A stretch of 64,000 nt of DNA from a virus. How positions within the stretch are numbered: the stretch's first letter is position 1; each line of letters opens with the position of its first letter. A program made the position numbers and the translations under genes. The stretch covers positions 7,990 to 71,989 of the IMG/VR virus record IMGVR_UViG_3300008255_000132; one strand, written 5' to 3'. Positions 6,001 through 52,165 of the stretch are shown piece after piece. Below the pieces are notes generated by a model. That model did not search any database and was not told where the DNA came from. It saw only the letters and a program-made list of their open reading frames with translations.

Positions 6001-9000
6001 GGTCAATGGCGGCGTCGGTTCAGGATTGGCTGAAGAGGACCTATCCCCAACTATCCGTGTTCTTGGCCCAGACACGTACCAACGGGTCTTGCCTGTAGAA
6101 GGTTCGGTCCTGACCGCTGCGATGGGTCAAGCCCTGCATCGAGCTATTGAGCTGACCGGTAAGGCCACGAACGGAGCCCCGATCCACGTTTATGACGGGT
6201 CGGTCGGCGCTATCGAGGTCATCGAGATTAGCGCAGGTGCCTACAGCGCCCTCGGTGTACGCCCGGGCGCTCAGCCTGTGGCAGCGCTTAACGTTGACAT
6301 GGCTTGGCCCCCAGATGCGCTCCACCCATTGGTGATTCGGGCTGCGAAATGGACCACATCGACGGTCCCGGTCGGCGCGCAGGTCGGGGCACCCGAGCCG
6401 GTGGTGCTTATGCCCCCTCCTAACGACGTCAACAACTCTGGTGATACTCTGGGTCACATCCGAAACCCGTTGTCATCGTATTGGCACCTATACGACATCA
6501 ACATCCTGACGGCGTCACGCACCGGAATGATCACGATGGACAACAAAGGCTCTGGTACGGGTATTTCCAACCCTACCTACAGTTGGCTCGGTTGGCACTT
6601 TACACGTTGCCCGTTGCTGGGTCGTCATGACCACCGCACGTATCGACTCGATCATAACCGCTGGATTGTTGGGGCACAGGAACCTGTCGCAGCTCTGGCC
6701 CAGTTTGACAACGATGGTTCGGTGCTGCCGGCTAAGACTTGGGCACTTGACGACCTGCATCGTGCCCGGTTTGGGCGCCGGCTCACATCCAGTAACGGCT
6801 TTGCATCATCGTGGGCATCGCTCACCTCAATTCCTGCTGGTCAGATTACAGCAATCCACTCAGCCGTGTTCGTTGACCCGAGCCAGAACGTACACCGGGT
6901 CGGTTTGGCGTCGACTAGTGGTGATAAGCTCGTTCATATCGGCCTAGGGCTATTTGACCCGCTAGAGCCGGGTCTTGCGGCGCTGGGTACCGATGATTTC
7001 ATCAAGGCGGCGCCGTTCAACCCGATCACATCCCCTTTGCAGTACGCTACACCGCCGTCGCTGAGCTATACCATGGATGTGACGTGGCTTACCAACGGGT
7101 CGTTCGACGGCGTTCCCGGGGCTGGTGGGACGGTACAGGTTTGGGATCGTGTCGACGACACCACGTTAAGTGCGGGCGCCGTTCTGACGTCGGCCGGCAC
7201 TTTCAGCGTGCCATTGACCCACGGCGTGTCATCTGCCTTCATTTCGCTCACGGGCGCGGGGTCTTTCGCGTTCCGCGCCACAATCAAGGACGAGTTGGGT
7301 AATGCCGTTAAGGACCCGGCCAACCCCGATGCCGACCTGACTCGGAACGCTCTTATTCAGGTTACTCAGCACGGAATGAGCGCGTCACCAGCATCTATTG
7401 CTGTCGTCTATGACATTCCAGATCTTGAAGTGATCGCGTTATCCAACGTTACCTGGGCTTTGGACACGAACTGGACCACGGAGCCGTTCAGTGTAATCCT
7501 GGAGGCACGGACCGATCAAGGTCAGCTATCGATGGAGGTTGATGGCGCGGTTCGTGTCTCGATCAAGAGCGTGAAGACGGTCGAGGGCGTGGACATCACC
7601 CCGACCCCATACATTCTGTCCACGGAGCAGGATCACCTAATGCGTGGTGGTGTCTGCCACGTTATGGACCTGCATCCACAATTTACATCTACTGGTCCGG
7701 GTGATCTCCAGGCGATTCTAAGCGCGTCGGCTTATAGCTACGCGATCATGACCCTGGCTATGACCCCAGTCGGTACAGGGCATGTTAGTCTCGATTCACA
7801 GGAATTCACGTATGAACTCGGTGTCTGGCCCCCGGGCGGCCAGCGTGGTACAGACCCTTCGGCGCTTCCTGCCACGCTTCAGACCTACCCGTGGGCGGCC
7901 CGGCTCACTGACAAGGCGTGGTTAGGGCCTGTTGTTGATGATAACTGGCTGGCTTTAGCCCCTAATAGCGCAATCTCGGCGATTGAGACCAACGCGCCGG
8001 CTCTGGCTAAGATCAAAACCGCGACAGGGTTGCCATTTTGGTCCGGCTGGCCTGGTGATCCGGCGCACCCCAATTTCCGGCTAGGTTATCAAGCGATCTA
8101 CCCTGACCCGTCGATATGCCCAAACCTGACCTACGTCGGCTACCCCGCGACGGTGGCGTCTACCAAGTGGGCGGCGCTCCCGTTCTACTGCGACGACTGG
8201 GTCTATGAAGGCGGCCTAGTCATAAATATTGAGCAAGAGCACGGTTTCTACTTTCATAACACGGCTGGTGACACCGCGGTCAGGGATTCCACCATTATGA
8301 ACGTCGGGCGTACTGCGATCCAGAAGGCAGATAGACGGCTCGAGAACCCGTATTCTGATGTAAACGACCCGAATGACACCGGAGGCCCCGGCCGTGGTGT
8401 GTTCCGGGTCAGTAACAATACGATCATGGAAACGGGCCTGAACGATGGCGGCGGCTCAATCACACTGGCCGGGCATGGGCCGGACGGTGAGTTGATCGTG
8501 GAGGGCAATGCAGTGTTCAACGGCTATGACGATTCGTTAGCCGCTATTCGCAACATCTCTGACGGTATGTTTGGGGCCTCGATGACGGTATGGGGTGAGG
8601 CTTTAGCATCGACAGGTAGTACCACATTCACGCTCTGGAGCCTCGGGTTCAAGACGAACGGTTACCAGCAGTGGAACCCGTTCCTGCTGCGGTCTAATGG
8701 GGCTCCGGTATTCACCTATGCCGAAATCCAAGCCAACCTGGCTCATAAACTCGATTACTTCGGAGCCCTAGGTGTTGTTGGCGGAGACGGGACCCCGGTG
8801 CCTACCCCAACCTGGTACACCGACCTTCTCTACGGCTACCCGATGATGACTTACGCGGGCCAAGTTCTCGGGCTTACAGCGGATGACGGTTTCGCAGGCG
8901 CTAGTCCACAGGTGTATTTAGGGCTTACGCCGGACCCGATCTACGGTATGGGCAGCCCGACATACGGGAGCATGCACCAGAACGGACGGGTCACAGTTCG

Positions 9001-11607: not shown

Positions 11608-13949
11608 TGAGCCAGTCGATCACCACGGCATACCACGCGCTCGATACGTCGAAGCAGCATAATAAGCGCTACAATGGCGTGATCCGGCCTGGGGTCTATG
11701 CGGGGTATTGGGCTCGCGCCAACGTGGGTCAACCCAATCTGATTGACCTAACCCTAGGTGCTGATACCAGCAGCGTGCTAGTCACATCTGAGGGTGTACG
11801 CATTGAGGAGACGTCCCCTCTATTTGCGGTAGCCGCTGTAGCAGCCGCTGATTCCAGCTTGACCAGGATTGATCTCCTCGTGGCTGAGTATCAATACACG
11901 ACTGACACCACGATCGAGCAGAGCTACAAGCTGATCAAGGGGAAGAACCAGACCAATCTGAGCGCGGACCCAATCCGGCCTATGGTCTCGAACCAGTTCC
12001 AGGTCCCACTAGCCTGGATTATGGTCCGACCACAGCAGGCCACCGGTGGTTCAGTCCAGGCCAAAGTCTTGAGTACAGACATTATCCACGTGCCTAAGGC
12101 GGCGTGGGCGGCTGCGCCAGCTGATCTCTCTGGTCTCAAACCTGTGATTGATCCCAACGACTCTCGGCGCGTGTTTGTGCACGAAGGCGTAATGCCCAAC
12201 GTGGACGGGACTCGTGTGATCTCGTTCACGGGCGGGTATAGCGGTGTGATAGATGCTGTTAACCTCGACGACCTCGAGCAGCGTTGGTACACGATTGGTG
12301 TTGATGATCAGGGTGATGTCGAGGTGCTTGGTGATGCGGCGACACGCGCTGCACTACCGGAGCTAACCAGTGCTAGCATCCCGGTGGCGCATGTTCGCGG
12401 TCAGAAGATCGGTGGCCAGCTTCAGCTGCTTGAGCTCATCGACATTCGTCTTACGTTTAGTCGTCAATTATCGCAGGAGCAGGAGAGCTACACATATCGT
12501 GATCTTCTGGCTGGCTCTGTGTTCCGCTACCTGCGTGTCGAAAAGTTTGTCGACGACGCCCTGATCAATCTCGATACGGTCCAGTTTGCCGCATCTGGGT
12601 CATCTGACGACCTGATGGCCGAGATCGATAGCTCGAATACGAGCCTGACCCTGGTCTGGAGCGGGGCGACGTCGGTCCCGACCGAGGAGGTGTCAATCGT
12701 GACCGGTAACCTGCTGAGTGCCACCACAATTAGCCGTGTTGAACACTTCATGCTGGCTGTAGACGCTAGTTTCGACAATCTCGAGTTCCGTTACAGCACG
12801 AGTTCGGCTACCTCCGGGTTCAGTACGACGCGTCACAGCCCGAGGGAGATCGTTCGGATCCAATTTAACGGGGCTACCAAGCTCTTCATCAAGTTCTTGG
12901 TCCCGGTCTCCGGATTCGTGTCTGGTAAGGCGCGTCTGTTTAGTTACGGAGCCCTAATCAACCTCAGTGGTGGCGTAGCCAACGCACAGACTTTGGGTGA
13001 TCTTGGGTTGCTCGCGCTCCCGAACTCGGTCAACAACTTGATTGCCAATGGGTCGTTTTATTACTGGAGTCGGCAGCTAGCTAACGGCACCGTACCCGAC
13101 CTCACTAGCCAGGACGATCTGATATTCAGCCTCAGCTCGGGTGATGACTACCCGCTGGTCGCCGATGGTTGGCAAATGACCAAGTTCCAGAACCCGATGG
13201 CCGGCGAGGCTGCGTCCAGGGTGACGCGTGACCAAGGTGACGGTACCGTAGCTACTGCGCTCGAGCTAATCACAGCTGCTGCGACGTCAGCAGGTTCTGT
13301 TAGTGTGATGGAGTACAGGATACCGGTTGGTGCGGAGATCCAGGGTCAGTACTTGACTTTCGCGATTGGGTTCGAGACAACCACGCCACAAGCCCTAGGC
13401 TTCGGCATCGCCCAGTACTCAAGGTCATCAAGCGGGCTTGTGCTCAAGACTAAGGACGAGGCCTTTGCCCAGACAGCATCCGGCGAGACTTATGTGAAGT
13501 CATCGACCGCGATTGGTCCGGATACGGATCAGATCAGTTTTTATGTGATCATGATCGCTAGCACGAGCGATGTTACGCATAGGCTCTGGGACGCGCGGGC
13601 GGCTGTCGGTGAGTTCTCGGTGCTACCTATGCTCAAGGTGCTCGACGCGCCTGGTGTCCTGCGGCAGTATTACGAACGTGGTCGCATCTTCTCAGCCCAA
13701 AATGTAGTTGAGAATACGCAGGTAGGACAAGCCCAGCAGTTTGGGACACCGAAGGCCGGCTCCTTGGGCGTTATTGTTGGTCGCACGGTTCCGGGCCCTA
13801 GTACGAACCGATCGAGTAATGTAGGCGATCTTATTTATTCCGCGGACCGTCATGGTCTGCTCGTCACCGCGAGTGCTAGCTCAGCTGGTATCGTTACTAT
13901 AGACGCCGACTGGGAGAGCTTCGTCAAGTTTGAGGCCAGTGTTCAATGA
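11607..13949 (+). CDS. Minor tail/baseplate protein with carbohydrate-binding-like module
   Basis: ATG at 11607 overlaps the upstream TGA (TGATG). AADSSLTRIDLLV and ..YKLIKG..VPLAWI tail-protein motifs; NNLIANGSF..DGW CBM-like start in the C-terminal half. Confidence 0.6.
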   Translation: MSQSITTAYHALDTSKQHNKRYNGVIRPGVYAGYWARANVGQPNLIDLTLGADTSSVLVTSEGVRIEETSPLFAVAAVAAADSSLTRIDLLVAEYQYTTDTTIEQSYKLIKGKNQTNLSADPIRPMVSNQFQVPLAWIMVRPQQATGGSVQAKVLSTDIIHVPKAAWAAAPADLSGLKPVIDPNDSRRVFVHEGVMPNVDGTRVISFTGGYSGVIDAVNLDDLEQRWYTIGVDDQGDVEVLGDAATRAALPELTSASIPVAHVRGQKIGGQLQLLELIDIRLTFSRQLSQEQESYTYRDLLAGSVFRYLRVEKFVDDALINLDTVQFAASGSSDDLMAEIDSSNTSLTLVWSGATSVPTEEVSIVTGNLLSATTISRVEHFMLAVDASFDNLEFRYSTSSATSGFSTTRHSPREIVRIQFNGATKLFIKFLVPVSGFVSGKARLFSYGALINLSGGVANAQTLGDLGLLALPNSVNNLIANGSFYYWSRQLANGTVPDLTSQDDLIFSLSSGDDYPLVADGWQMTKFQNPMAGEAASRVTRDQGDGTVATALELITAAATSAGSVSVMEYRIPVGAEIQGQYLTFAIGFETTTPQALGFGIAQYSRSSSGLVLKTKDEAFAQTASGETYVKSSTAIGPDTDQISFYVIMIASTSDVTHRLWDARAAVGEFSVLPMLKVLDAPGVLRQYYERGRIFSAQNVVENTQVGQAQQFGTPKAGSLGVIVGRTVPGPSTNRSSNVGDLIYSADRHGLLVTASASSAGIVTIDADWESFVKFEASVQ

Positions 13950-26900: not shown

Positions 26901-27022
26901 AGTCAGCATACGCATTTGGAAGCCGGCTGACGACCAGGCTGGCTGAGGCTTACGTTAGTTGCGGTATGCTGGTCAAAGGTTTCTGGGACGTGCACCGGGG
27001 TTGCTAGCACCTGTATATCGGC

Positions 27023-36293: not shown

Positions 36294-38192
36294 ATGAGTA
36301 GCTTCGAATCAGGGTCAACAGTAACAGGACGCGGGATCAGGAACGATCGAGGGCTCAACACATACCCTCATCAGTTCTTCGATCCGAGTACGTCGTACAT
36401 TCCGCACTCAGTCAAGGAGCTGTTCCGTTGGTGCCAGTTTCTGTATATGACGCACTCGGAGATCGCTCCGGTTATCAACAAGAAGTGCTCGTACGTCATT
36501 ACGCGCCTGATTTACGACTCGGATATGGACGCCAACGTAGCTGCGTGGCGGGATGTGCTAGAACGGACCCTCGACATTCGGCAGATGGAGTACAAGCTTC
36601 TGCTTGATTACGAGGTCTACGGCAATGCATTTGTATCGATCCACTACCCATTTGAGCGGTATCTCACGTGTCGGTCCTGTAAGAACACGTCGCCAGCTCG
36701 GAGCATGACTTGGGTCTACAAGGACAACAAGTTCAGCTCTAGATGTCTCAAGTGCCACCACGAGGGTGAGTTCGATCCGGTCGATCGGAATATCAGAAAC
36801 AGGAGCCGGATGCGTCTGATCCGGTGGAACCCGAAGTTCATAAATATCCGGTATAACCCGTTCACTGACGACTCGGTCTATATTTACCGGATCCCGACCT
36901 GGTTGAAGAAGAAGCTGACTACGGCTGGTGAGAACCACGAGTTAGTGTCAGGCACCCCACTCGTGATTCTTGAGGCCATCAAGTCGCAGCGTGATGTTGA
37001 GTTAGATCGTGACAACATCTACCACTTCAAGAACCCGAGCATCAGCCTAGAAGATGACGCGTTTGGTATGCCGCCGCTATTGGCCGTGTTTAAAGACGCG
37101 TGGCTGTTCCAGACCTATCGTAGGGCCCAGGAATCGATCGCGCTCGAGCATATTCTGCCTCTGACCCTGCTAGTACCGGCTGCAAGTAGCTCAGGTGCCG
37201 CGCCTCACATGAGCATGGACCTTGGTGATTGGGCTGATAAGATGCAGCTTATTATCAAGAAGTGGCGCCGGGATCCTAACGGCCTGTTCACGATCCCGTT
37301 CCCAGCTACGATCGAGAACGTACGCGGTGATGCCCAGGCACTGAACGTGCACAACGACATGACCCAGATCCGTCAACAGATTACGGGCGGCCTCGATGTT
37401 CCCCAGGAGTTCATCTATGGCGGGCTAAACTGGTCAGGATCTTCGATCAGCCTGCGTGTGCTAGAAAACCTGTTCATTGGTCGTAAGGAGCAGCTAGATG
37501 AGTTCCTTAAGTGGGTCGTAGAGCGTGTCCAGCGATTCTGCCGCTTGCCCGAGATAAAGGCTCGTCACCGAGACTTCAAGATGGCTGACGACGCGCAGCA
37601 GAAGCAGATCGCACTCAGCCTTCGTCAGACCAATACGATCTCGGATCAGACCACGGTTGAGGAGCTCGGGTTTGACTTTGGGCGCGAGGTTCTACGCAGG
37701 GAGCGTGAGGAGCGTGAGCGCCTCGGAATCATGGAGCGCTCCCAGATGCGTCAGGCCGAGACCCAGGGCAAGATCATGGTGGCGCAGGCGGAGGCCCAAG
37801 CCAAAGCTGAGGCGGCCCAGATGAAGCAACAAGAGACGCAGCGCGCCAAAGGTATCCAAGAGGGCTTCAACATGGGCCAGGCTGAGGAGGCTGCTGGGGC
37901 CGGGGCCTCTGATGGTGACGGGGCAGACCAGACCCAGAGCACCGAACCACCGCAGACGGCAACGGACGAGGGTATGCTACAGGATCCCGTCTTGCTAGAT
38001 ATGATGGCGAACCACGTGATCAAAGGCACTCCGCCACATCTAATCGAAATGGAACTACAAGCCCTCGAATCAACTAATCCAGCCCTTGCCAAGGCCGTGC
38101 GGGCCCGGATCAAGAGGATTCAGACACAAACTGACAGCCTTACCCCATTGCCGGAGCAGAAACCCCCACGTCGGGCGGTTTCGCCAGTCTAA
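36294..38192 (+). CDS. Portal protein with inserted Zn-finger
   Basis: LLLDYEVYGNAFV, RWNPKFINI, IYHFK..FGMPPL, QITGGLDVPQEFI, C-terminal coiled coil. CRSC..CLKC inserted after the YGNAF motif. Confidence 0.75.
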   Translation: MSSFESGSTVTGRGIRNDRGLNTYPHQFFDPSTSYIPHSVKELFRWCQFLYMTHSEIAPVINKKCSYVITRLIYDSDMDANVAAWRDVLERTLDIRQMEYKLLLDYEVYGNAFVSIHYPFERYLTCRSCKNTSPARSMTWVYKDNKFSSRCLKCHHEGEFDPVDRNIRNRSRMRLIRWNPKFINIRYNPFTDDSVYIYRIPTWLKKKLTTAGENHELVSGTPLVILEAIKSQRDVELDRDNIYHFKNPSISLEDDAFGMPPLLAVFKDAWLFQTYRRAQESIALEHILPLTLLVPAASSSGAAPHMSMDLGDWADKMQLIIKKWRRDPNGLFTIPFPATIENVRGDAQALNVHNDMTQIRQQITGGLDVPQEFIYGGLNWSGSSISLRVLENLFIGRKEQLDEFLKWVVERVQRFCRLPEIKARHRDFKMADDAQQKQIALSLRQTNTISDQTTVEELGFDFGREVLRREREERERLGIMERSQMRQAETQGKIMVAQAEAQAKAEAAQMKQQETQRAKGIQEGFNMGQAEEAAGAGASDGDGADQTQSTEPPQTATDEGMLQDPVLLDMMANHVIKGTPPHLIEMELQALESTNPALAKAVRARIKRIQTQTDSLTPLPEQKPPRRAVSPV

Positions 38193-38575
38193 TGGCCGGG
38201 GTTAATGGAAGCAGCGGCCGAGTTCGTGTTGAGGCTCAGCTTGTCCATCAGGTGCGTGACGGCATGCAGCGCAGGCTGGCTACGACTGGGACTATGACAA
38301 AGATCGGCGCCGTGTTACTACGTCCAATGTACGGGGTGCAGCGGCGGATGCGTCGTGAGTCTCTGGATATGGACAACGCCGCGGATCAGGAGCGTTGGCA
38401 GATGCTGCACAACGACCTGGAGCGCTACGAGATCGTGTCGGAGAAAGACAGCAACACGACGCGCGGTAACCACTGCCATGTGGTCTATATCGAGAAGGGC
38501 GATGACCTACCACTGGTCAAGAGTGGGGCAGATCTGCGACGCAAGGATAAGGCTCGGATCAGGGAAGACAGCTGA
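38192..38575 (+). CDS. Hypothetical protein
   Basis: 127 aa; coupled to the portal by TAATG and to the RNAP by TGATG. Confidence 0.6.
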   Translation: MAGVNGSSGRVRVEAQLVHQVRDGMQRRLATTGTMTKIGAVLLRPMYGVQRRMRRESLDMDNAADQERWQMLHNDLERYEIVSEKDSNTTRGNHCHVVYIEKGDDLPLVKSGADLRRKDKARIREDS

Positions 38576-41500
38576 TGCTTGAGAACAAGCATTTCAAGCA
38601 GTTTACCGATACGTTAAAGCGGTCCGAGGCTATCGTTGCGCGTATGTTCCCGATCCAAGGCCCGACCAAGAGTCTTGAGGTCAAGAACCTACGCTGGACT
38701 AATGTTGGCCCTGATGTCCTATTTGACATCGATCGACAGAAAAAAGCCAAACTCAAAGAACAGTCGCTCAGTGCAGTACTGGTCGGTGATGTGACTCTGC
38801 GTGAGCTCGGTGCATCTAATAAGGTTCTGGACACAGCGCTTAAGTATCCGATACTCTCGATCCCGCATCTGACGATGAACGCAGGTTACATCGTGGACGG
38901 CAAAGAGAGGCAGGTCATAAACCAGTTCCGGCTTAGGCCCGGTGTGTACACCAGATTTACTGGTGATGATAACGTCGAGGCGTTTCTCAACACGACGGCA
39001 GTTGGTACCTACAAGGTCGTCCTAGACCGGGCCACTGGTATCCTACGGATGCGGGTTGGTTCCACGGCACGTACGCCGCTCTACTCTGTGCTTATCGCGG
39101 TTGGGATGCGTGACGATGAGATCAAGGCCCTGCTTGGGTCAGAGCTCTTTGCCGAGAATAAGCGAGCAGCCAATCCGGCCAAGGACATCCCTAGTCTGCT
39201 GAAGCGGATGCGTCCGTATCTGGTTCAACCAAGCGAGCTAGGCGAGAAAGCGACCCTGGTCCGCCAGTATCTCGAGTCAAAGCCGTTGGATCCGGCTGTG
39301 AACAAGGTCACGCTTGGTAAGGAGCTGGACAAGATTGACAGGCGTGCGCTTGAGGAGACCACGCGCAAGATTATCAAGCTGTCACATGGGGAGATTGAGC
39401 CTGACGATACCGAGAGCCTGGCGTTTAAATACATTCTATCGATTGAGGACTTTGTGCCGGAGCGGCTGGAGAAGGCTGTCGATGGTATGAAATATAAGAT
39501 CCTAGGCGATCTACGCCGACGCAACGAGATCCGCCTGATCTTGCCGCCTAACCGATTAAGCTCGCCGGTCGATGCGTTTTTCACTGGATCGGAGTTCACG
39601 CGGTACTCGGACCAGCACAATCCGATCGACATGGCCGCTGTTGCGAGCCTCACTACGAGCTTAGGCGACGGCGGTATCAGCAGCACCTATGCAGTTACCG
39701 ATGAGATCCGAACGATCCACCCGAGTCATTACGGCTTGCTGGATCCGATGCACACACCGGAGGGTGACAAGGTCGGCGTATCCGGTCACCTCACGATTGG
39801 TGCGCTAAAGCGAAACCGGACCCTATACCTGCCGGTATACAACGCAAAGACTGGTCAGCGTGTTGAGATGTCGGTTCAGGATTTAGACCAGGCTACGGTT
39901 GCGTTCCCCGACCAGTATGACAACCTCCCGGATGCTCCAAAGGCGTCTGTCGGCGCCGCGCCGCATACGACCAAACCACTGGTCAAGGTCAGGAGCAAGA
40001 ACGTGCTTATGGAGGTCAAGCCAGCAGCCGTAGACTATGTCTTCGTAAGCTCTGACGCTTTCTTCAGTTCAACCACGGCTGCGATCCCGTTCCTACCCAA
40101 TAACGACGCGAACCGCGTCCTGATGGGTGATAAGCACGTAGAGCAGTCTGTAAATCTGATGAACCCAGACGCCCCGTTGGTCCAGCATAGGATCCGTGGT
40201 AAGGGTTACGAAGAGTTGTTCGGCGAACGGCTAATCCCGCGGGCCTTGGACCCTGCTACGGGTAAGCCTATTGGCGGGGAGGTTGTGGAGGTGACCAATA
40301 ACTCGATCACTATCAAGCCCGATGGCGGCGGCCGGTCTCGTGTCAAGATCCCGCTCCATGACCATTATCCGCTAAATAGTCGCACATTCCTGCACGACAC
40401 CGCAATCGTGAAGAAGGGGGACCGTGTTGAGCCTGGTCAGGCCTTGGCTTCGAATAATTTCACCAAAGGCGGGCAGCTTGCTATTGGCGCTAACCTCCGC
40501 GTGGCTTACACCGCGTACAAGGGTTACAACTTCGAGGATGGCGTTGTAATCTCAGAGGGTGCAGCAAAGAAACTGACTTCGATCCACAAGTATGAGGCTC
40601 GTGTTGAGAAGGAGTCGAAGGTGGTGATCGGAGCCGACACCTATATAGCGGCCTACCCATCAGAGCTCGGCCATGTGCGGGATCGGGCTAAGCGCTATGA
40701 CGCAGCCGGTATCATCAGGAAGGGTCAGGTTCTGGTACCTGGTGATGTGATTATCCCAGCGATCAGAGAGGTTGATATCCATCCAGAGTACGACTATAAG
40801 AAGCTGCATCGGAGCGCTGGTCTGCGCTTTATGGATATAAGTGAGACTTGGGACCATGACTTCGACGGGTTGGTAATCGATGTTGTTACGACCCGAACCT
40901 TTGTCAAGGTGATCACGAAGAGTCAGGAGCCGATGCAAATTGGCGATAAGCTTAGTTCACGCCACGGCGCCAAGGGTATCGTGGTTAAGATCATCCCAGA
41001 TTCCGAGATGTACCGGGACGAGTCTGGGGCTGTGATTGATATCCTGCTCAACCCCGCGGGCGTGCCTGGTCGAGTTAATACAGGCCAGATGCTAGAGGCC
41101 GCCGCTGGTAAGCTAGCACGGATTACGGGTAAGACATACTACACCGACAACTTCAACGCGAAGGGTAGTGCAGTGGCTCGTGTCCGTAAGGATTTAGCCG
41201 ATGCAGGGCTATCTGACGAGGAGGTGATCACTGACCCGAAGACAGGGCACCAGCTGGGTCGGGTCTTGGTTGGCGATACCCACATCTATAAACTAACGCA
41301 CCAGGTCGCGGGCAAGATGAAGTCGCGTGCTGCTGTTGGTGAGGCGTACTCAACCGATGAGCAACCCACCAAGGGGTCTGGTTCAGGTTCGCAACGGATT
41401 GGGATCCTGGACACGTTTAGCTTGCTGTCTGGTGACGCCACAGCGTTCCTCAATGACGCATTTGGCCTTAAGTCGCAGAAGAATGATGAGTACTGGCGCG

Positions 41501-44500
41501 CGCTTCAACTTGGTCAACAATTGCCGCCACCTAGGACCCCATTCGTTGAGGAGAAGTTCATTGCCATGCTGATCGGGGCTGGCATCGACCTGAAGCAGAA
41601 GGGCTCCAGGATCGAAGCTAGTCCGATGACGGATGCAGAGGTTCGGTCTATGTCGAATGGCGTGATCGAGAAGCCGATCGCAGTCAAGGCTTCGAACCTG
41701 AAACCAGAGCGTGGTGGCTTATTTGATCCAGGCAAGACAGGGGGGCCGGGCGGTAACTACTGGAACCATATCGAGTTGGCCTCAGCTGTGGTCCATCCTC
41801 TCATGCTCGGTGCGGCAGCCTCTGTCGGGGGCTTCAAGACACGTAAAGAGTTGGATCAGATCATTGCAGGTCTGCTGGCTGTCGATGAGGAGGGTACCGT
41901 TGTATCCGCGGGTACTAAAGGCGCCGTGGCTGGTGGGGCCGGGGTTCAGCGACGCCTTGCGAAGATCGACGTGAAGCGCGAGATTGCCAGCACGGAGGCA
42001 ATCGCTACCGGCGCGAGGGGTGTGAAGCTGGACCAAGCCTATAAGAAGCTGCGTTATCTCCGTGCCTTGGATAAAACTGGCTTAACCCCGGCCGAAGCGT
42101 ACGTGAACAGGGCGATCTCGATCATCCCAGCAAAGTTCCGTCAGATCTCGCCGATGCCTGACGGCAGCCTAAGCGTAGCCGACGCTAATCACGGATACCG
42201 CGAGGTTCTCTTGGTCAACGAGAAGATCAAGCAGCTCCAAGCCCTGGGTGTTGATGAAGCCAATCTTCGGGACCTGAATAAGGCGCTGGCCGAGGCCACC
42301 GCGGGACTAGTCGGTACAGCACCGCCACTAAGCCGAGGTAAGGTGTTCCGCGGATTTGTGAGCCAGATCCATGGACCAAGCCCAAAGTCGGGTTTCGCAC
42401 AGTCGAAGGTCATGCGTAGGAACCAGGACCTGAGCGGCCGATCTACCGTTATCCCAAACCCCAAGCTGGGTATGGATGAAGTCGGGCTGCCAGCGGGCAT
42501 CGCATTCAATGTCTATAAGCCGTTTATTATCAAGCGGCTGGTTGAGGGCGGGCACAGACCCTTGGACGCTCGGTCTATGGTCGAGGATAAACACCCCGCA
42601 GCGCTTCGCGCGCTCCAGGTCGAGATCGAGTCCAGGCCCGTACTGATGAACCGGGCTCCGTCGCTCCACAAGTTCTCGATCCAGGCCCTGAAGCCGCGGA
42701 TCATTGACGGCAAAGCGATCGAGGTAAACCCGCTGATCGTAAGCGGCTATAACATGGACTTCGATGGTGATACTGCGGGTATCCACGTGCCGGTATCGGA
42801 GGAGGCTCGGCGTGAGGCGCTTGAGAAGCTGTTACCTAGCCGTAACCTATTCAGCCCCCGCGCCGAGTTCGTGGTGCATGCTCCGACCAAGGAGACCGTG
42901 TTTGGTCTCTACCTTATGACTATGCCAAAGGGGGTGGCTGAACGGGTGTTCGAGTCGGATCAAGCTCTGATGAAAGCGTATCAGGCTAAGGAGGTCGCGG
43001 TAAACACGGCGGTCAAGGTAGGGGGCTCGATCACGTGCGCTGGACAGGTTGTATTGAACGCAGCGCTGCCGGCCGGTATCCAGGTCGGCCGTATACCCGT
43101 AACAAGCAAGGTATTGGATCGTCTATTACTACGTATAGCCAAGGAGCTGGGCCCGGACCCGGCTGCCCATCTGATCTCCAGCCTTAAGGACCTAGGCAAT
43201 CACTATGTAACTGAAATCGGCTTTTCAGTCAGTCTCAAGGACCTAGAGATCGACACAGTGAAACGTGATGCGATCATTAAGCAGTTGAAGACCAGTGCGG
43301 GCACCAAAGGATTCGACGCCGCGGCGGCCGTGGCGCTAGATGACATCGCGGCGCTACTCGCAGCATCCGAGGATAACCGTTTTGTGGAGGCCGGTATCGT
43401 GTCGGGTGCCTTGGGCTCCAAAGGTATTCACAGAATGTTGGCCAGCACAGTGGCTGTTACCGATCACAAAGGGCGTACTATTCCGATTGCAGTAGAAAAG
43501 TCTTACGCTGAGGGTCACGACTTGGGTACGTACCTTGGGACTACGCCGGGTGCGCGTAAGGGTTTGATTGACAAGGGTCTGAGCGTAGCTGACACTGGCT
43601 ATTTCAGCCGGATGCTGGTTAACACCTCGATTGAGAATCAAGTGTCATCTACGGATTGCGGAACTAAATCGGGCGTCGATCTACCGATAGAGTCACCAGA
43701 GCTTGCGAGCCGTTACGGGGCTGACGGGCCCTACCGTAATGTACTAATTACAGCAGATATCGCACGCCGACTCCGATCGTCAGGTATCCGCACGATCAAG
43801 GTCAGGAGTCCGTTGACGTGCCAAGTCCAGAAAGGTGTGTGTCAATTATGCTTCGGCTTGCTCGAGACCGGTAAGAAGCCTCAGATCGGGTACCACGTTG
43901 GTGCCCTGGCTGGCCAAACCTTAGGTGAGGTTGCTACCCAGCTCACGTTGCGTAGCTTCCACACAGGCGGCGCAGTCGGTGGCCCTAACCTTGGTTTTGA
44001 GCGGATCAGACAAATCATGGAAATGCCGCAGAGCATCAAAGGCAAGGCAGTACTTAGTACGGCCGCCGGGGTCATTACCAGGATCGACAAAGCACCGGTC
44101 GGCGGTAGTTACGTTTACGTCGGGCTGGCCCGTCACTTCGTGCCTCAGGAGTTGGGATTGGTCATGCACGTAGGTGACCGGGTCAAGAGCGGTGACATGC
44201 TGAGCGCTACTGGTGTGATCAAGCCTCAGGAACTACTAGAGACGACTGGGGACGTCCACAAGGTCCGTCAGCACTTGATCAACGAACTGGATTTGAACTA
44301 CAAGGCTGCGGGCAAGGCGGTTAACCGACGTATCTTTGAGACCGTAGTCAAGCCGCTTACAGATCGGGCTACAGTCACTGACGTCGGGGACGGTGAAAGA
44401 TTATTTCCGGTTCATGCCGGTGACGTCTTGAGCACAAATCGGATTGAAGAGTGGAACCGCCGGATCAAGCAGATGAACCTACGCCCGATCTTGTTCGATC

Positions 44501-44700
44501 CTATGATCCTGGGTATCAAGCAGGCTCCGCTACTAAGTGAGGATTTTATCGGTACGCTATCCCATGAGAAGTTAAAGAAGACGCTGTCGGATGCCCCAAG
44601 CTTGGGCAAGTCTACCGACCTTCTGAACGGGCACCCGATGGCCCGACTTGCACTCACCAACCTGCGTTCAATTGACGCAATCAAGCGGCCTCGAGGTTAG
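38575..44700 (+). CDS. rpoBC: DNA-directed RNA polymerase, fused beta::beta' single polypeptide
   Basis: Beta motifs: YIVDGKERQVINQ, HPSHYGLLDPMHTPEG, IPFLPNNDANRVLMG, GYNFEDG, GDKLSSRHGAKG, NPAGVPGRVNTGQ. Beta' motifs: KPERGGLF, DLSGRSTV, NRAPSLH, catalytic YNMDFDGD, bridge helix GARKGLID, RSPLTC..VCQLCFG, trigger loop GEVATQLTLRSFHTGG. Confidence 0.97.
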   Translation: MLENKHFKQFTDTLKRSEAIVARMFPIQGPTKSLEVKNLRWTNVGPDVLFDIDRQKKAKLKEQSLSAVLVGDVTLRELGASNKVLDTALKYPILSIPHLTMNAGYIVDGKERQVINQFRLRPGVYTRFTGDDNVEAFLNTTAVGTYKVVLDRATGILRMRVGSTARTPLYSVLIAVGMRDDEIKALLGSELFAENKRAANPAKDIPSLLKRMRPYLVQPSELGEKATLVRQYLESKPLDPAVNKVTLGKELDKIDRRALEETTRKIIKLSHGEIEPDDTESLAFKYILSIEDFVPERLEKAVDGMKYKILGDLRRRNEIRLILPPNRLSSPVDAFFTGSEFTRYSDQHNPIDMAAVASLTTSLGDGGISSTYAVTDEIRTIHPSHYGLLDPMHTPEGDKVGVSGHLTIGALKRNRTLYLPVYNAKTGQRVEMSVQDLDQATVAFPDQYDNLPDAPKASVGAAPHTTKPLVKVRSKNVLMEVKPAAVDYVFVSSDAFFSSTTAAIPFLPNNDANRVLMGDKHVEQSVNLMNPDAPLVQHRIRGKGYEELFGERLIPRALDPATGKPIGGEVVEVTNNSITIKPDGGGRSRVKIPLHDHYPLNSRTFLHDTAIVKKGDRVEPGQALASNNFTKGGQLAIGANLRVAYTAYKGYNFEDGVVISEGAAKKLTSIHKYEARVEKESKVVIGADTYIAAYPSELGHVRDRAKRYDAAGIIRKGQVLVPGDVIIPAIREVDIHPEYDYKKLHRSAGLRFMDISETWDHDFDGLVIDVVTTRTFVKVITKSQEPMQIGDKLSSRHGAKGIVVKIIPDSEMYRDESGAVIDILLNPAGVPGRVNTGQMLEAAAGKLARITGKTYYTDNFNAKGSAVARVRKDLADAGLSDEEVITDPKTGHQLGRVLVGDTHIYKLTHQVAGKMKSRAAVGEAYSTDEQPTKGSGSGSQRIGILDTFSLLSGDATAFLNDAFGLKSQKNDEYWRALQLGQQLPPPRTPFVEEKFIAMLIGAGIDLKQKGSRIEASPMTDAEVRSMSNGVIEKPIAVKASNLKPERGGLFDPGKTGGPGGNYWNHIELASAVVHPLMLGAAASVGGFKTRKELDQIIAGLLAVDEEGTVVSAGTKGAVAGGAGVQRRLAKIDVKREIASTEAIATGARGVKLDQAYKKLRYLRALDKTGLTPAEAYVNRAISIIPAKFRQISPMPDGSLSVADANHGYREVLLVNEKIKQLQALGVDEANLRDLNKALAEATAGLVGTAPPLSRGKVFRGFVSQIHGPSPKSGFAQSKVMRRNQDLSGRSTVIPNPKLGMDEVGLPAGIAFNVYKPFIIKRLVEGGHRPLDARSMVEDKHPAALRALQVEIESRPVLMNRAPSLHKFSIQALKPRIIDGKAIEVNPLIVSGYNMDFDGDTAGIHVPVSEEARREALEKLLPSRNLFSPRAEFVVHAPTKETVFGLYLMTMPKGVAERVFESDQALMKAYQAKEVAVNTAVKVGGSITCAGQVVLNAALPAGIQVGRIPVTSKVLDRLLLRIAKELGPDPAAHLISSLKDLGNHYVTEIGFSVSLKDLEIDTVKRDAIIKQLKTSAGTKGFDAAAAVALDDIAALLAASEDNRFVEAGIVSGALGSKGIHRMLASTVAVTDHKGRTIPIAVEKSYAEGHDLGTYLGTTPGARKGLIDKGLSVADTGYFSRMLVNTSIENQVSSTDCGTKSGVDLPIESPELASRYGADGPYRNVLITADIARRLRSSGIRTIKVRSPLTCQVQKGVCQLCFGLLETGKKPQIGYHVGALAGQTLGEVATQLTLRSFHTGGAVGGPNLGFERIRQIMEMPQSIKGKAVLSTAAGVITRIDKAPVGGSYVYVGLARHFVPQELGLVMHVGDRVKSGDMLSATGVIKPQELLETTGDVHKVRQHLINELDLNYKAAGKAVNRRIFETVVKPLTDRATVTDVGDGERLFPVHAGDVLSTNRIEEWNRRIKQMNLRPILFDPMILGIKQAPLLSEDFIGTLSHEKLKKTLSDAPSLGKSTDLLNGHPMARLALTNLRSIDAIKRPRG

Positions 44701-44704
44701 ACAC

Positions 44705-45064
44705 ATGAAGAAGCAAGCATCATACGGCGCCGCCTATATCAGTCGGCTGTACAAGACTGGGGCTGACATCAAGGAGAAGCCCAAGACCAAACCACTAGAC
44801 CGGGTCGCGATTGACAAGGCTCGGCTAAATCCAGATCTGATGCGGATCATGCGGATGCGCTCAAGCGTGGCCGTCCCGCTCCAGGGCGGGGAGAAGCTAG
44901 CCGTTCGGCGCCTAGCCAGAAGGAGCCTCCCATTGATGCGGCAACACAACTCAAACCTAACCGAGGACGCGTTGTACACAAGGCTGGTGAACCTGGTCGA
45001 AAGCCGGCGGCCTGAGATGCGAAAACGCTTGATTGCGGAGATCTCAGCACAGTACGGGTCCTGA
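44705..45064 (+). CDS. Small basic hypothetical protein with KxA motifs
   Basis: ATG 4 nt after the RNAP stop; MKKQAS, LYKTGA, GEKLAV. Confidence 0.6.
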   Translation: MKKQASYGAAYISRLYKTGADIKEKPKTKPLDRVAIDKARLNPDLMRIMRMRSSVAVPLQGGEKLAVRRLARRSLPLMRQHNSNLTEDALYTRLVNLVESRRPEMRKRLIAEISAQYGS

Positions 45065-45067
45065 ACG

Positions 45068-46342
45068 TTGCAGCCTCAATACGAAGTCGATAGTTGGTCC
45101 GGATTGACCGAGCTGGCCCAAGGCCCTCGAGACATGAGGGGGCTACGTGTCGGGGCGGTCCGGACCTATGACCCAGATCGGAAGTTGTACTGGATTTCGG
45201 TGGAGGGTATAGGTGACCGCCAGTGTAGGCGTATGCTGACTGGTCTTGACAAGCCGCTGCCACCCGGAGCTGCGTGTCTAGTTGTGCCTGTCGTAGCGCA
45301 CCACTGGGTAGTCATAGGTGAGCTAGATCGCCCAACCCGCCAGCCCGATCGTGCGCTACCGGGTTCCAACGATCAGGAAGCCGCGATCGAAGGTCGATTA
45401 GCCGCAGCCCTGGGGCAGCGGGACTCAGCGCTGGCGCCGCTCTACCGTCCTCTGGATCTTCAAGGGATGGCCGAGGAGCCGCAGTTTGTCGGCGATGCTA
45501 GCCTTGAGAACCGCACCAAGGACCACATCCGGCGATCCCGCATCAAGGTCTACAGCTTCGGAGACATCATGCTTTGGGCGTCAGCTCTGTGCTACAGCAT
45601 CTACCACAGAGCTACTAATACGGTATACCGCCGGTGCCGAAACGAGGTTTTCGAGGCCTTCGGTGTCGTATTACAAGTTATCACTCCGACTGAGGGGGAC
45701 AACGCGGGCCGAACCACGCGGCGACTCGTGGTGCGGCATAATGCCGAGGCCAAAACAACGATCGATAAGGTCCGATCTGAGGGGCAAATGCTAGCCGCTG
45801 ATGCCGTAGATGGTGAAGGGCTCCTAGTAGGGCCTATAGCCGCCCGAGGGGAGCGCGCTATCTGGGGCACGCACCGGGTAGAGGAGGTTGATAACGATAC
45901 GGGTACATACCGGACCCAGCAGGAGCTGGGGGACGGGACCAGAATCACAACGCAAGTAGGCGCCTTAGTCGCGGAGAACTCAAACCATCCGGTATCGGGG
46001 ATCCAGAACCCCTCAACGCCCAGCGGCGTTATTCGTTCCGATGGTGATGGGGTGGTAGAGCGCGGTGCGCACTATCGGTTCGCGAATGGGTTAGAGGTTA
46101 CGGTGGACGCAGCCCGCGGTGAGCTTGAAGTCCTGAATCTGGCTACAGACGAGGTGCATAGGGTCGTCATGGCTCCAGATCGTCTAGTAATAGAGCGCGG
46201 CTCTCAATCATTCCGACTCGACGCGTCCGGGCTTACGATCAAAGCTAAGGCCTACACCCTCGATATTGACGGGGCTGTACAAACCACGGCTGGCGGTAAC
46301 GTTACGATCAATGCCGCTGACATGGACGTTAATCTTGGCTGA
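45068..46342 (+). CDS. Baseplate central spike protein (gp5/gpV/VgrG-like)
   Basis: N-terminal OB-fold-like pattern (GAVRTYD..LPPGAACLV..WVVIGEL); C-terminal beta-strand repeats (FRLDASGLTIKA..GNVTINA); directly followed by PAAR. TTG start. Confidence 0.7.
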   Translation: MQPQYEVDSWSGLTELAQGPRDMRGLRVGAVRTYDPDRKLYWISVEGIGDRQCRRMLTGLDKPLPPGAACLVVPVVAHHWVVIGELDRPTRQPDRALPGSNDQEAAIEGRLAAALGQRDSALAPLYRPLDLQGMAEEPQFVGDASLENRTKDHIRRSRIKVYSFGDIMLWASALCYSIYHRATNTVYRRCRNEVFEAFGVVLQVITPTEGDNAGRTTRRLVVRHNAEAKTTIDKVRSEGQMLAADAVDGEGLLVGPIAARGERAIWGTHRVEEVDNDTGTYRTQQELGDGTRITTQVGALVAENSNHPVSGIQNPSTPSGVIRSDGDGVVERGAHYRFANGLEVTVDAARGELEVLNLATDEVHRVVMAPDRLVIERGSQSFRLDASGLTIKAKAYTLDIDGAVQTTAGGNVTINAADMDVNLG

Positions 46343-46619
46343 GCTACAACGAGAGGGGGACCCTATCAGCTGCGGTGATCGCCACGGCACGGCCGGTGGC
46401 TTCCTACTCAATGGGAAACGGGTCGCGCTGCTTGGTGAGCTATCGGAGGGGCACGCTGGGTTTGCGCCGACACCGGTTCTTGATGGTCTCGCACTGTTCA
46501 GGGTCAATGGGGTCCCGGTAGTGCTAGTCGGAGCCGCCTACGTACCGCACGCCCTGGGGCAAACGGTCCACGCGGTACGGTTGGCTCAGGGTGGTGGCGT
46601 GAGCCTGAATGTAGGCTAG
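46335..46619 (+). CDS. PAAR-like spike tip protein (T4 gp5.4-like)
   Basis: TTG start at 46335 gives MAELQREGDPISCGD..NGKRVALLG..GH..FAPT..VNGVPVVLVG..H..H, about 94 aa with potential metal-binding Cys/His. Confidence 0.8.
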   Translation: MAELQREGDPISCGDRHGTAGGFLLNGKRVALLGELSEGHAGFAPTPVLDGLALFRVNGVPVVLVGAAYVPHALGQTVHAVRLAQGGGVSLNVG

Positions 46620-50150: not shown

Positions 50151-51966
50151 CACCACTTTCGGTGGTGTGTCGACACAGGTCGATCGCGGCTTGTTATTCG
50201 AACAGCTCTGTGAATTTTTCAAAGATAACGAGCAGGTCGATGATGAGGCTTGGGAGTCGCTGGATTGGTCTGGCTATAACCAGAAGGCAGAGGCTGCGGC
50301 GGAGCAGTCAGCGGACGATGCTATAGATATTGATCCAGGCCGCGCCGCCCGGGCGTTATCCGACGGCGGTATGATCCTAGCCACTATCTCGGACATGGTG
50401 GCAAACTTGCTAACTGTAGACCAGGCTCCGTTCAGTTTCGTAGGTCGCGAATACCTCCAAGGTCTGTACGACCCGGTCCAGGAGCACCCGGAAGGGTGCC
50501 GTAACCAGATTTGGCTCGCTGGCCGCCAGGTTGAGAAATCGACGACGCAGGCTGCGAAGTCGATTGTTCTCGGGGCTTTTCGTAAGAGTTACAAAACGCT
50601 GTACGTCGCACCACGGTTCGAGCAGGTCCGTGTATTCAGTCAGCAGCGCTTTAAGCCTATGTGCGAGGATAGCCCAAACTTATCGCCTTGGATTAAGCCT
50701 AGTCGAACTCTGTGGCAGGTCAGCTCCAGGGAGTTTGTCAATGGGGCCTTCTTCAACTTCCGAAGCTGTTACCTGAGTGCTGACAACGCCCGAGGTATCA
50801 CATGCCACCACCTAAATGTGGACGAGATCCAGGACATCGTGTCGGACTCTATCCCTGTCCTTGAGGAGTGCCAGAGTCACGCCACCCCGGAGCTGCGTTT
50901 TAGGTCCTATGCGGGTACACCCAAGACCACTAGTAACGTACTTAGTCGACGGTTTGATAACAGCTGCCAGTTTGAGTGGCATACGCGGTGTGATGCCTGT
51001 AACCACTGGAATTTCTTAGATGAACGGATCGTAGGTAATAACAGCTTCGTCTGCGCGCGCTGCGACCGGGAGATTAACCCCAAGAAGGGGCAATTCATCC
51101 CGATGAGGCCGAGTCTACTAGATAAATGCTGGGGATTCCGGATCAGCCAGCTCATGGTTCCGTTCCAGACCCACGCTGATATCATATCAAAGCGGGATGA
51201 CCCTAACTATAGCCGACAGAAGTACTTCAATGAGTGCTTAGGGCTAGCCTATGACGAGGGTCAACTGGTCCTGACCGAGGCTGTAATGGCGGAGGCCTGT
51301 AACACGGAGCCGATGCGCAGTATTGACCGTATCCGTGAGATGGCGGACCGCGGTGTCCCACTGTTCGGTGGTGTTGACTACGGTCCTGGTGAGGGTGAGA
51401 ACCCGTCATTTACTGTTCTGACTATCGGCTGGTGGCATACGTCGGGTTATTTTGAGGTTTTGTGGATGCGTCGGCTGGTCGGTAACGACTCCAACCTAGC
51501 TAGACAACCAGGTGTGATCAACAGCCTATTCACGAAGGCTGGGGTGCGCTGGACCGGGGCCGACTGGGGTTTCGGGGCTGCTATCAATGAGCAGTTAATA
51601 CAGGAGCACGGATGGCATCGGGTATCATCCAGTAGATGCCTCATGGAGTTCCAATATGGCGGCCAGCGTGAGCTTGCATCGTGGAATGATAAGGCGCGCC
51701 GGTATGTGATTGACCGGAATCAGGGCATGGAGAGGTTAATTGACGGGATACGCACAGCAAAGGTTCGGTTCTTCCGCATGGAGGAAATGGCGCCATTCGT
51801 GGATGACTTTACGACGATCTATGTCGAGTTTGATGAGCGTCGGAATACGCGTAAGTATGACCACGACCTGCCTGATGATGCGTTCCACTCTGTAAACTAC
51901 GCGTTCATGGCTGCGTGCCAATACGCTGGGCGCCTAGTCCCAACCTGGCTCACCCCCTTGTCTTAG
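50143..51966 (+). CDS. terL: Terminase large subunit
   Basis: Walker A GRQVEKST, LYVAP, ARGI..Walker B LNVDEIQD, coupling motif GTP, Zn-ribbon CDAC..CARC, nuclease GGVDYG and PDDAFHS. Confidence 0.93.
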   Translation: MGDTTFGGVSTQVDRGLLFEQLCEFFKDNEQVDDEAWESLDWSGYNQKAEAAAEQSADDAIDIDPGRAARALSDGGMILATISDMVANLLTVDQAPFSFVGREYLQGLYDPVQEHPEGCRNQIWLAGRQVEKSTTQAAKSIVLGAFRKSYKTLYVAPRFEQVRVFSQQRFKPMCEDSPNLSPWIKPSRTLWQVSSREFVNGAFFNFRSCYLSADNARGITCHHLNVDEIQDIVSDSIPVLEECQSHATPELRFRSYAGTPKTTSNVLSRRFDNSCQFEWHTRCDACNHWNFLDERIVGNNSFVCARCDREINPKKGQFIPMRPSLLDKCWGFRISQLMVPFQTHADIISKRDDPNYSRQKYFNECLGLAYDEGQLVLTEAVMAEACNTEPMRSIDRIREMADRGVPLFGGVDYGPGEGENPSFTVLTIGWWHTSGYFEVLWMRRLVGNDSNLARQPGVINSLFTKAGVRWTGADWGFGAAINEQLIQEHGWHRVSSSRCLMEFQYGGQRELASWNDKARRYVIDRNQGMERLIDGIRTAKVRFFRMEEMAPFVDDFTTIYVEFDERRNTRKYDHDLPDDAFHSVNYAFMAACQYAGRLVPTWLTPLS

Positions 51967-52165
51967 TCCGTTGTATATCGGTCACAGTAACGTGCCCTTT
52001 AGTCAAGGGTTGTGCAGCTCCGGCCTGCTTCCTACACCCAACGCGGGGCGCCTAGCCCCAATCTGGCTCACTCCCTTGTCTTAGTCCGTTGTATATCGGT
52101 CACAGTAACGTACCCTTTAGTCAAGGGTTGTGCAGCTCCGGCCTGCTTCCTACACTCAACGCTGG
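51923..52165. repeat. 118-bp tandem direct duplication
   Basis: 51923-52040 and 52041-52158 differ at 6 positions by manual alignment; the start ACGCTGG recurs at 52159-52165. Confidence 0.95.

Follow-up and report, generated by a model that had tools for sequence, protein, structure and literature searches.

A single-chain, bacterial-type beta::beta' RNA polymerase in the virion gene block of an uncultured groundwater or aquifer phage

Can both catalytic subunits of a bacterial-type RNA polymerase (RNAP) be encoded by a phage as one polypeptide, and how would such an enzyme be used during infection? This question is raised by an open reading frame (ORF) in a 64,000-nucleotide stretch of viral DNA (hereafter, the window; positions 7,990 to 71,989 of the 71,989-b IMG/VR record IMGVR_UViG_3300008255_000132), for which the original prediction had proposed a compact beta::beta' fusion, possibly independent of alpha and packaged in the virion. 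CheckV gives the record a completeness of 37%, so the full genome would measure ~190 kb. The sequencing runs containing the window stretch are labelled groundwater or aquifer metagenomes, and none of the runs listed that hold it is an RNA run. Taken as a whole, the results make it probable, in our view, that the ORF encodes the sole RNAP of a groundwater or aquifer phage, uncultured and ~190 kb in genome size, and that this enzyme is packaged, depends on sigma and has no phage alpha or omega partner.

Two catalytic subunits in one chain

The ORF (positions 38575-44700, plus strand) comprises 2041 codons with an ATG start and no internal stops, and its product is almost certainly a genuine single-chain bacterial-type beta::beta' RNAP. 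The features of the chain are the following (pLDDT, predicted local distance difference test, refers to the structural model described below).

38575..44700, plus strand: single-chain beta::beta' RNA polymerase (P0001), 2041 aa; Pfam, phmmer and solved-structure matches
38575..41604, plus strand: beta module, residues 1-1010; Pfam Rpb2_3 and Rpb2_6, phmmer, residues D791, K792 and K800
39763..39768, no strand assigned: empty intein site HTPEG/DKVG, residues 397/398; filled in relatives P0003 and L005
40786..40821, plus strand: probable beta flap tip, residues 738-749; pLDDT < 50, model residues 179-190
41575..41628, plus strand: beta/beta' junction GAGIDLKQKG/SRIEASPM, residues 1001-1018; alignment, model and contigs
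41605..44697, plus strand: beta' module, residues 1011-2041; Pfam Rpb1_1, Rpb1_2, Rpb1_3 and Rpb1_5, Foldseek
41716..41778, plus strand: site of the missing beta' N-terminal zinc-binding domain (GGLFDPGKTGGPGGNYWNHIEL); the Salmonella beta' alignment breaks past residue 63
42178..42315, plus strand: clamp helices (coiled coil), residues 1202-1247; ungapped against Salmonella beta' 263-309
42751..42771, plus strand: catalytic loop NMDFDGD, residues 1393-1399; family consensus NADFDGD
43657..43851, plus strand: second zinc site, C1695, C1749, C1756 and C1759, retained; nearly invariant columns

The Pfam beta domains are N-terminal (Rpb2_3, residues 345-408; Rpb2_6, residues 591-934, E 3.4e-57), and the beta' domains follow them in the chain (Rpb1_1, residues 1011-1052, weak and under the cut-off; Rpb1_2, residues 1352-1417, E 1.3e-27; Rpb1_3, residues 1424-1557; Rpb1_5, residues 1653-1829). 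This order, together with the uninterrupted translation, confirms the initial claim that both catalytic subunits lie in one 2041-aa ORF. With the beta and beta' proteins of Salmonella and Staphylococcus aureus from public records as phmmer references, residues 96-298 aligned with S. aureus beta 118-328 and residues 330-1022 with beta 457-1160. The closest solved structures are bacterial beta' chains, the top one being that of Bacillus subtilis (6wvj_D, E 2.7e-103, 349.6 bits). Against the ORF product, phiKZ-type PHROG profiles score 82 bits at most, and the scores of two PHROGs without a name, 1191 and 1216 positions long, are 245 and 380 bits. The aspartates of the metal-binding DxDxD loop (D1395, D1397 and D1399) do not vary among 24 aligned family members, and neither do D791, K792 and K800 of beta, which include two active-site lysines and lie in GDKLSSRHGAKG; the window protein carries Met in the catalytic loop where the family has Ala (NMDFDGD versus NADFDGD). 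The GC content of the gene, 0.555-0.565, equals that of the remaining window.

A further question is whether the two subunits are truly joined at the position proposed. The junction string begins at residue 1001, that is, at nucleotide 41575, just where it had been placed. In the phmmer alignment with S. aureus, the beta C-terminal region ends at residue 1022 and the beta' N-terminus starts at residue 1020, so the subunits are joined end to end without a linker. In the contigs of public runs X2-X5 over positions 41000-42200 (the possible source run was excluded), the junction is bridged by one contig per run in all four runs, with 0 differing letters and 0 indels; neither a stop nor a frameshift is present there.

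The same junction recurs throughout the relatives. In an alignment of 81 intein-free family members of 1950-2170 aa, the 80 residues around it are free of gaps in every sequence, and the mean frequency of the commonest residue nearby (0.49-0.55) is on a par with that of the catalytic regions. Among 5.8 billion clustered proteins, 220 homologues were found, and of the best 120 of these, 119 contain both Rpb2_6 and Rpb1_2 (Pfam); the sole exception, the fragment P0090, begins 46 residues ahead of the junction and yet spans it. When 251 residues centred on the junction were used as a query against 1.84 billion cluster representatives (50% identity clusters), 1066 proteins were found at E <= 0.001, with 350 clusters at E <= 1e-30, and the matched stretch crosses the junction in 150/150 cluster representatives among the matches listed. 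Judged from these sequences, the fusion appears to be ancient and universal in the family.

The junction is also well ordered in an AlphaFold2 model of residues 560-1500 (59 aligned sequences as input; mean pLDDT 89.1, predicted template modelling score, pTM, 0.83), in which it has a pLDDT of 90-95 and runs as helix, beta-hairpin, helix. Foldseek pairs the beta' half of this model with solved bacterial beta' chains (E 4.6e-37), at a template modelling (TM) score of 0.68 normalised to the cyanobacterial N-half chain 9dvs_D.

How far has the enzyme been reduced? Its 2041 aa amount to 74% of Salmonella beta plus beta' (1342 + 1407 = 2749 aa) and to ~85% of the S. aureus pair (stop-to-stop frames of 1185 and 1215 aa). 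The description of the chain as minimised therefore holds in the sense that it is smaller than cellular pairs, but the reduction is modest, ~15% under a Firmicute pair. The clearest loss relative to cellular pairs is the beta' N-terminal zinc-binding domain: from GGLFD to HIEL the window protein has 16 residues and no cysteine, and this short form is common to all family rows shown and to the family consensus. By the phmmer map against S. aureus, the beta N-terminus and the chain C-terminus are shortened, as are the beta lobe region (S. aureus 329-456 versus 299-329 here), the beta' N-terminal region (49-167 versus 1052-1116 here) and the region past Rpb1_3 (541-621 versus 1484-1511 here); several lineage-specific inserts are also lacking. 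The clamp helices, which in bacteria are the main sigma-docking element, are retained and form two long helices in the model. Residues 738-749 are the sole internal model segment with a pLDDT < 50 and have the length of a flap tip, and from the alignment against the Salmonella sequence they are the probable beta flap tip.

The fused family and its position in the tree

Is the window polymerase a singular find? It is not: the family to which it belongs, as one more, intein-free member, is very large and little described and comprises hundreds of clusters. Its nearest relative is a 193,018-b record (G001) with terminal repeats and 100% completeness, whose RNAP is 78% identical. In the closest relatives, P0003 and L005, a 340-aa in-frame insert stands past the position of residue 397, starting with C and ending with GN before S; the L005 intein occupies 12801-13822 (G001 coordinates), in the conserved HTPEG/DKVG stretch of beta. 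Inteins, one or more per protein, are present in many family members, which reach lengths of 2400 to ~3100 aa. In the five relatives searched (the complete 193-kb genome, two IMG/VR records of 81% and 70% completeness, and the phages D69 and Arash introduced below), there is one RNAP locus per record without exception.

Cultured relatives exist as well, namely Vibrio phages D69, D181 and D148 (186-188 kb) and Salmonella phage Arash (OQ632216.1, 181 kb), with RNAPs ~28-33% identical to the window protein. Arash and D69 fall in the same tree family as the window and share with it the order of portal, small ORF and RNAP. The 1525-aa Arash protein Gp206 covers window residues 21-1483, with beta fused to beta' at the same junction; the Arash paper, in its available text, labels it 'subunit beta' and does not mention a fusion (PMC10585845). 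Unlike the window polymerase, which is one uninterrupted chain, those of Arash and D69 have beta' cut in two past about residue 1483-1508. Between the beta' parts lie ~4.8 kb with nine annotated genes in Arash (L003, 13491-18262) and two small ORFs in D69 (L002, 13497-14136), and in the D69 gap no Rfam intron match was found at E <= 0.1; the RNAP match in D181 and D148 overlies a homing endonuclease. Since the cut forms lie inside the fused family in the tree, the cut is a later, derived event.

The tree was built from three segments (beta 591-1000, beta' 1117-1484 and beta' 1600-1830; 1049 columns kept after trimming) under LG+C20+F+G4 with a quick search. Its 69 rows comprise 24 family proteins, Arash, D69, three family contigs filed in metagenome-assembled genomes (MAGs), 37 bacterial rpoB-rpoC pairs and three other phages; the bacterial rows are 35 of the 77 loci kept by a genome scan (80 best genome hits) plus 2 public records. 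All 29 rows of the fused family, Arash and D69 among them, form one split with a Shimodaira-Hasegawa-like approximate likelihood ratio test (SH-aLRT) support of 100 and a stem length of 0.89, and the 37 bacterial rows form another with a support of 99. On these rows the family would thus be placed outside the sampled Bacteria, which is not to say 'sister to all Bacteria'. Of the phylogenetic comparison that had been proposed for this gene, the part made here sets the family apart from the 37 bacterial pairs and from three other phages; phiKZ and AR9 are not among the rows.

The three other phages, YerA41 (L107), Cobetia phage Carin-5 (L109) and Rhizobium phage RHph_TM3_3_6 (L108), have bacterial-like RNAP genes in the order beta' then beta, and the tree places them in neither the fused family nor Bacteria; Carin-5 also has a sigma gene immediately upstream. 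The three MAG-filed family contigs (L027, L028 and L029; 162-204 kb) were filed in Leptolyngbyaceae cyanobacterium, Bacteroidales and Thermoguttaceae MAGs; they are probably phage contigs swept into bins and give weak host hints at best. Among the bacterial rows, rpoB-rpoC of MAGs titled 'uncultured Gammaproteobacteria' or 'Pseudomonadales' (L045, L054, L078 and L089) group with Patescibacteria, and L078 adjoins a Saccharimonadales MAG with branches of 0.05; these MAG titles look wrong.

Packaging, sigma factors and rival readings

Given a fused core, the next question is where and when it acts. The position of the gene bears on this, and the features upstream and downstream that are relevant here are the following.

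36294..38192, plus strand: portal protein homologue, 632 aa; matches Arash gp204; its stop overlaps the start of the next ORF
38192..38575, plus strand: conserved 127-aa ORF between portal and RNAP; upstream homologues in L005, L010, L007 and L006
50143..51966, plus strand: large terminase subunit; Pfam GpA_ATPase (PF05876), E 5.7e-9

The 632-aa product is 26% identical to Arash gp204, annotated as 'portal protein' (tblastn, E 1.5e-72), and 74% identical to its L005 homologue, and portal families make up all ten of its best named Atlas clusters (score 0.92). By an iterated hidden Markov model search, a portal gene lies upstream of the RNAP in 9 of the 15 family loci with upstream DNA. The 127-aa ORF encodes a basic protein and has a small ORF as positional counterpart in D69 and in Arash (gp205); gp205 is not in the Arash virion table as available (PMC10585845). 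The RNAP start overlaps the stop of this small ORF (TGATG), which in turn overlaps the portal stop. The proposed coupling to the portal thus stands as to the identity of the portal and the overlapping stops and starts, with the correction that one small gene lies between portal and RNAP. Together with the large terminase 5.4 kb downstream and the shared strand, these genes bear out the location of the RNAP in a virion gene block. This conserved place past the portal, and the overlap of stop and start codons, agree with a protein associated with the head.

More direct evidence comes from the virion proteome of Arash (PMC10585845, as far as its text was available). Gp206, which holds beta and the N-terminal part of beta', stands at the top with 128 unique peptides and 3516 spectra, 2.6 times the 1333 spectra of the major capsid protein. 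Gp216, the C-terminal part of beta', has 1210 spectra, so that both RNAP proteins are among the five highest counts, and the sigma factor Gp10 has 467 spectra and 100% coverage; Gp196 has no mention in the main text of that paper, including Table 2. Packaging also fits the single RNAP per genome, as a phage with its own sigma-dependent core would need that core at the start of infection. The homology to Arash and the gene position together make it probable, in our analysis, that the window RNAP is packaged in the virion.

Which factors would the enzyme use? Profile searches found neither sigma-70 region 2 nor the alpha N-terminal domain in the whole 71,989-b record. In the five relatives, Sigma70_r2 is above the cut-off in every one, and alpha (PF01000) and omega (PF01192) are found in none, both profiles being positive in 14/14 control genomes; the T7-like RNAP profile PF00940 gave 0/5, which is uninformative because it also gave 0/14 in the control genomes. 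The earlier observation that the window holds no alpha, omega or sigma gene is thus upheld for the record as regards alpha and sigma-70 region 2, but its sigma part would reflect the fragment: the record is 37% complete, and all five relatives encode sigma-70 proteins. By tblastn, the sigma candidates of the relatives form two orthologous groups. The first contains Arash gp196 and proteins of D69 and G001-G003, the G001 copy having regions 2, 3 and 4; the second contains Arash gp10 and a G001 protein (E 1.5e-17), with region 3 above the cut-off and region 2 weak. Arash has genes of both groups, in contrast to the window record, in which none was found. By colinearity with the 193-kb relative, the group-one gene is inferred to lie just past the end of the record. 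It is most likely, on these sequence comparisons, that the enzyme is sigma-dependent, unlike those of phiKZ and AR9, and there is a good probability that it uses phage sigmas. As to alpha, the label 'alpha-independent' holds in so far as no alpha or omega gene occurs in the records of the five relatives, but host alpha could still be used, and for full independence from host alpha we see the chances as even. Outside the window, in the upstream part of the record (G000:C1:2521-2589), a 105-aa minus-strand frame has a sub-threshold Sigma70_r4-like helix-turn-helix (16.2 bits, E 6.4e-4); this is probably a small DNA-binding protein and not a sigma factor.

Under the reading we prefer, the RNAP would be loaded into the capsid together with a gp10-type sigma and would be ejected with the DNA, and early genes would be transcribed with the co-packaged sigma (the Arash gp10 orthologue). 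A second sigma (the Arash gp196 orthologue), made after infection, would later redirect the same core, and the covalent fusion may replace part of the scaffolding and assembly role that the alpha dimer has in cells. A bolder form of this scheme, which we regard as tentative and rather doubtful, sees here a natural minimal bacterial transcription machine: an alpha- and omega-free core with two phage sigmas, stored in the capsid, released by way of the tail, independent of host RNAP from the first minute and split off before the sampled phyla diverged.

A number of points weigh against a packaged, sigma-dependent enzyme of this origin, and there are two other ways of reading the same chain. The sigma link runs through the relatives: no sigma gene was found in the phage's own record, where tblastn with nine frames of the relatives (8 sigma candidates) gave nothing under E 0.015, and it could be the host core that the phage sigmas serve. 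For alpha and omega, absence was determined with Pfam profiles only, which a very divergent or structurally analogous subunit would escape, and host alpha could be recruited. The tree, a quick search, samples Bacteria from Bacillota, Bacteroidota, Patescibacteria, Planctomycetota and Pseudomonadota only, and was built without phiKZ or AR9 rows and without an outgroup from Archaea or eukaryotes. As for packaging, the prediction of a virion-borne enzyme has gained the Arash homologue, but by homology to one relative's proteome at only ~31-33% identity and in a preparation that was not clean. That preparation listed 116 proteins out of 272 annotated features, including many non-structural enzymes (DNA ligase, primase, ribonucleotide reductase and helicases among them), and the authors themselves, in the available text, state carry-over of infected-cell proteins as an alternative (PMC10585845). 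The window RNAP might then be a non-virion enzyme made in infection for middle and late transcription, the Arash count being carry-over of an abundant large protein; a chain of 2041 aa would yield many peptides in any case. We judge this unlikely in view of the 3516 Gp206 spectra against 1333 for the capsid protein, with Gp216 near the top (PMC10585845). Moreover, each genome has one RNAP locus, and without packaging a phage that has a sigma-dependent core of its own would have to use the host enzyme to express its first genes. Even in distant family members, the RNAP gene keeps its place, with the portal on one side, tail genes on the other and overlapping stop and start codons.

The other way of reading the chain is that it is not self-sufficient and assembles, after ejection or synthesis, with the host alpha dimer and perhaps omega. 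The protein is far closer to bacterial beta' (349.6 bits) than to phiKZ-type profiles (82 bits), so that subunit surfaces could be retained, and a phage gene for alpha or omega was not found in the five relatives. The non-virion RNAPs of phiKZ and AR9, however, function without alpha. A packaged and ejected enzyme would also have to encounter host alpha before it could act, and the cores of jumbo phage RNAPs are described as working without it (PMC7598289, available text); we give the host-alpha reading perhaps a little more room than carry-over, though still consider it improbable. There is, finally, hardly any chance that the gene is a recently captured or a mis-binned stretch of cellular rpoB-rpoC, or that two genes have been joined artificially by assembly or by a frameshift. 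Adjacent rpoB-rpoC is the normal bacterial order, and the bacterial identity of the protein is easily detected; against this, phage genes flank the ORF on both sides on one strand, its GC content is that of the window, the family is split from Bacteria with supports of 100 and 99, hundreds of independent assemblies have the same junction, and the four other runs bridge it identically.

Known systems and neighbouring genes

How does the packaged single-chain enzyme proposed here compare with systems already described? In Helicobacter and Wolbachia, cellular rpoB-rpoC fusions occur, and an engineered fusion exists in Escherichia coli; in all of them, one functional chain links the beta C-terminus to the beta' N-terminus. 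These fusions are full-size and still use alpha2 and omega. Relative to E. coli beta plus beta', the window chain is ~26% shorter and is without the beta' zinc-binding domain, and no gene for alpha or omega accompanies it.

Among phages, the virion RNAPs of phiKZ-like and AR9-like viruses are, according to the available texts, two-barrel enzymes related to beta and beta', packaged for early transcription and devoid of alpha and omega (PMC7598289, PMC7824862). As described there, however, they consist of four or five polypeptides, occur as virion and non-virion sets, use no sigma-70 and are highly divergent, whereas the window RNAP is a single chain and the only set, with relatives that have sigma-70 genes. 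Huge single-chain RNAPs that are borne in the particle and enter the cell along with the DNA are represented by N4 virion RNAP (PMC7824862), crAss-like gp66 (PMC7481178) and the tape-measure-fused RNAP of P23-45; the N4 enzyme is T7-like, and the other two are two-barrel enzymes too divergent for cellular profiles. The window RNAP differs from crAss gp66 and P23-45 in its Pfam beta and beta' matches, down to E 3e-57.

One of the closest known systems, to which this family may belong, is mReC (Weinheimer & Aylward 2020, PMC7481178; the statements on it are limited to the text available). Like the window, mReC consists of uncultured tailed phages from IMG/VR and metagenomes; its beta and beta' were found by cellular profiles, as the window RNAP was, and its RNAPs form a clade apart from cells and near Bacteria, similar to the tree of this family. 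The inclusion filter used there was NADxDGD, which the family consensus NADFDGD satisfies and the window's NMDFDGD does not. The mReC terminases and capsids were detected with PF03237 and PF07068, whereas the window terminase matches PF05876 only and its capsid candidate has no Pfam match; since only 8 capsids and 17 Pfam terminases were detected in the 97 mReC contigs (PMC7481178), this mismatch does not exclude membership. In the text available, 'fused' and 'fusion' occur once each, both about crAssphage, and 'virion', 'packaged' and 'sigma' have 0 occurrences (PMC7481178).

Phage-encoded bacterial-like RNAPs and virion RNAPs are thus known kinds, the sequences of the family are public, and cultured members exist. 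A description of the fusion, the sigma dependence or the portal-adjacent position of this family was not found in the literature searched. It would be a means by which a tailed phage supplies transcription of its own, and its combination of a single chain, high similarity to beta and beta' and sigma-70 genes differs from that of N4, phiKZ/AR9, crAss-like phages and P23-45. If the chain works without alpha and omega, it would be the simplest known sigma-dependent bacterial-type RNAP, and one core gene with one sigma gene would then make a tractable model for studies of assembly, promoter recognition and inhibitors. The placement of the family outside the sampled Bacteria is relevant to the early evolution of the enzyme. 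Environmental data contain a very large number of family members, cultured Arash and the Vibrio phages make the predictions testable now, and the window protein is useful as a clean, intein-free reference sequence.

Downstream of the polymerase, the original prediction had named a spike and a PAAR gene. The features of this part are the following.

44705..45064, plus strand: small gene 4 nt past the RNAP stop; homologues in L005 and L011
45068..46342, plus strand: candidate tail central spike, 424 aa; homologues downstream of RNAP in 7 family loci
46266..46619, plus strand: candidate PAAR-like protein; Pfam PAAR_motif E 0.012, 16.3 bits against a cut-off of 27

Both names remain candidates. 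The AlphaFold model of the 424-aa protein is poor (pLDDT 53, pTM 0.39, from 7 sequences), and no Foldseek match was found for it at E <= 0.001; its top Foldseek rows are baseplate and central-spike chains, but with E >= 1.4e-3 and TM <= 0.19 we did not accept them as a test. The PAAR-like match is under the Pfam cut-off. Against PHROGs, 8/8 neighbouring proteins had no match, and Pfam had none for the portal, the 127-aa ORF, the 424-aa ORF and the capsid-region proteins, including a 421-aa capsid candidate.

One short motif, TGTATATCGG, was tried as a promoter motif and set aside as too weak: it has 3 exact intergenic copies, and 7 copies with one mismatch against 2.85 expected, a number reached in 5 of 100 shuffles. 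At 51923-52158 a 118-nt unit, which could be a promoter or regulatory unit although the statistics are weak, stands twice in tandem with copies 95% alike, the first starting within the terminase gene, in its 3' end. Both copies contain TGTATATCGG, and the same motif is also present at 27012-27021, just before the next gene.

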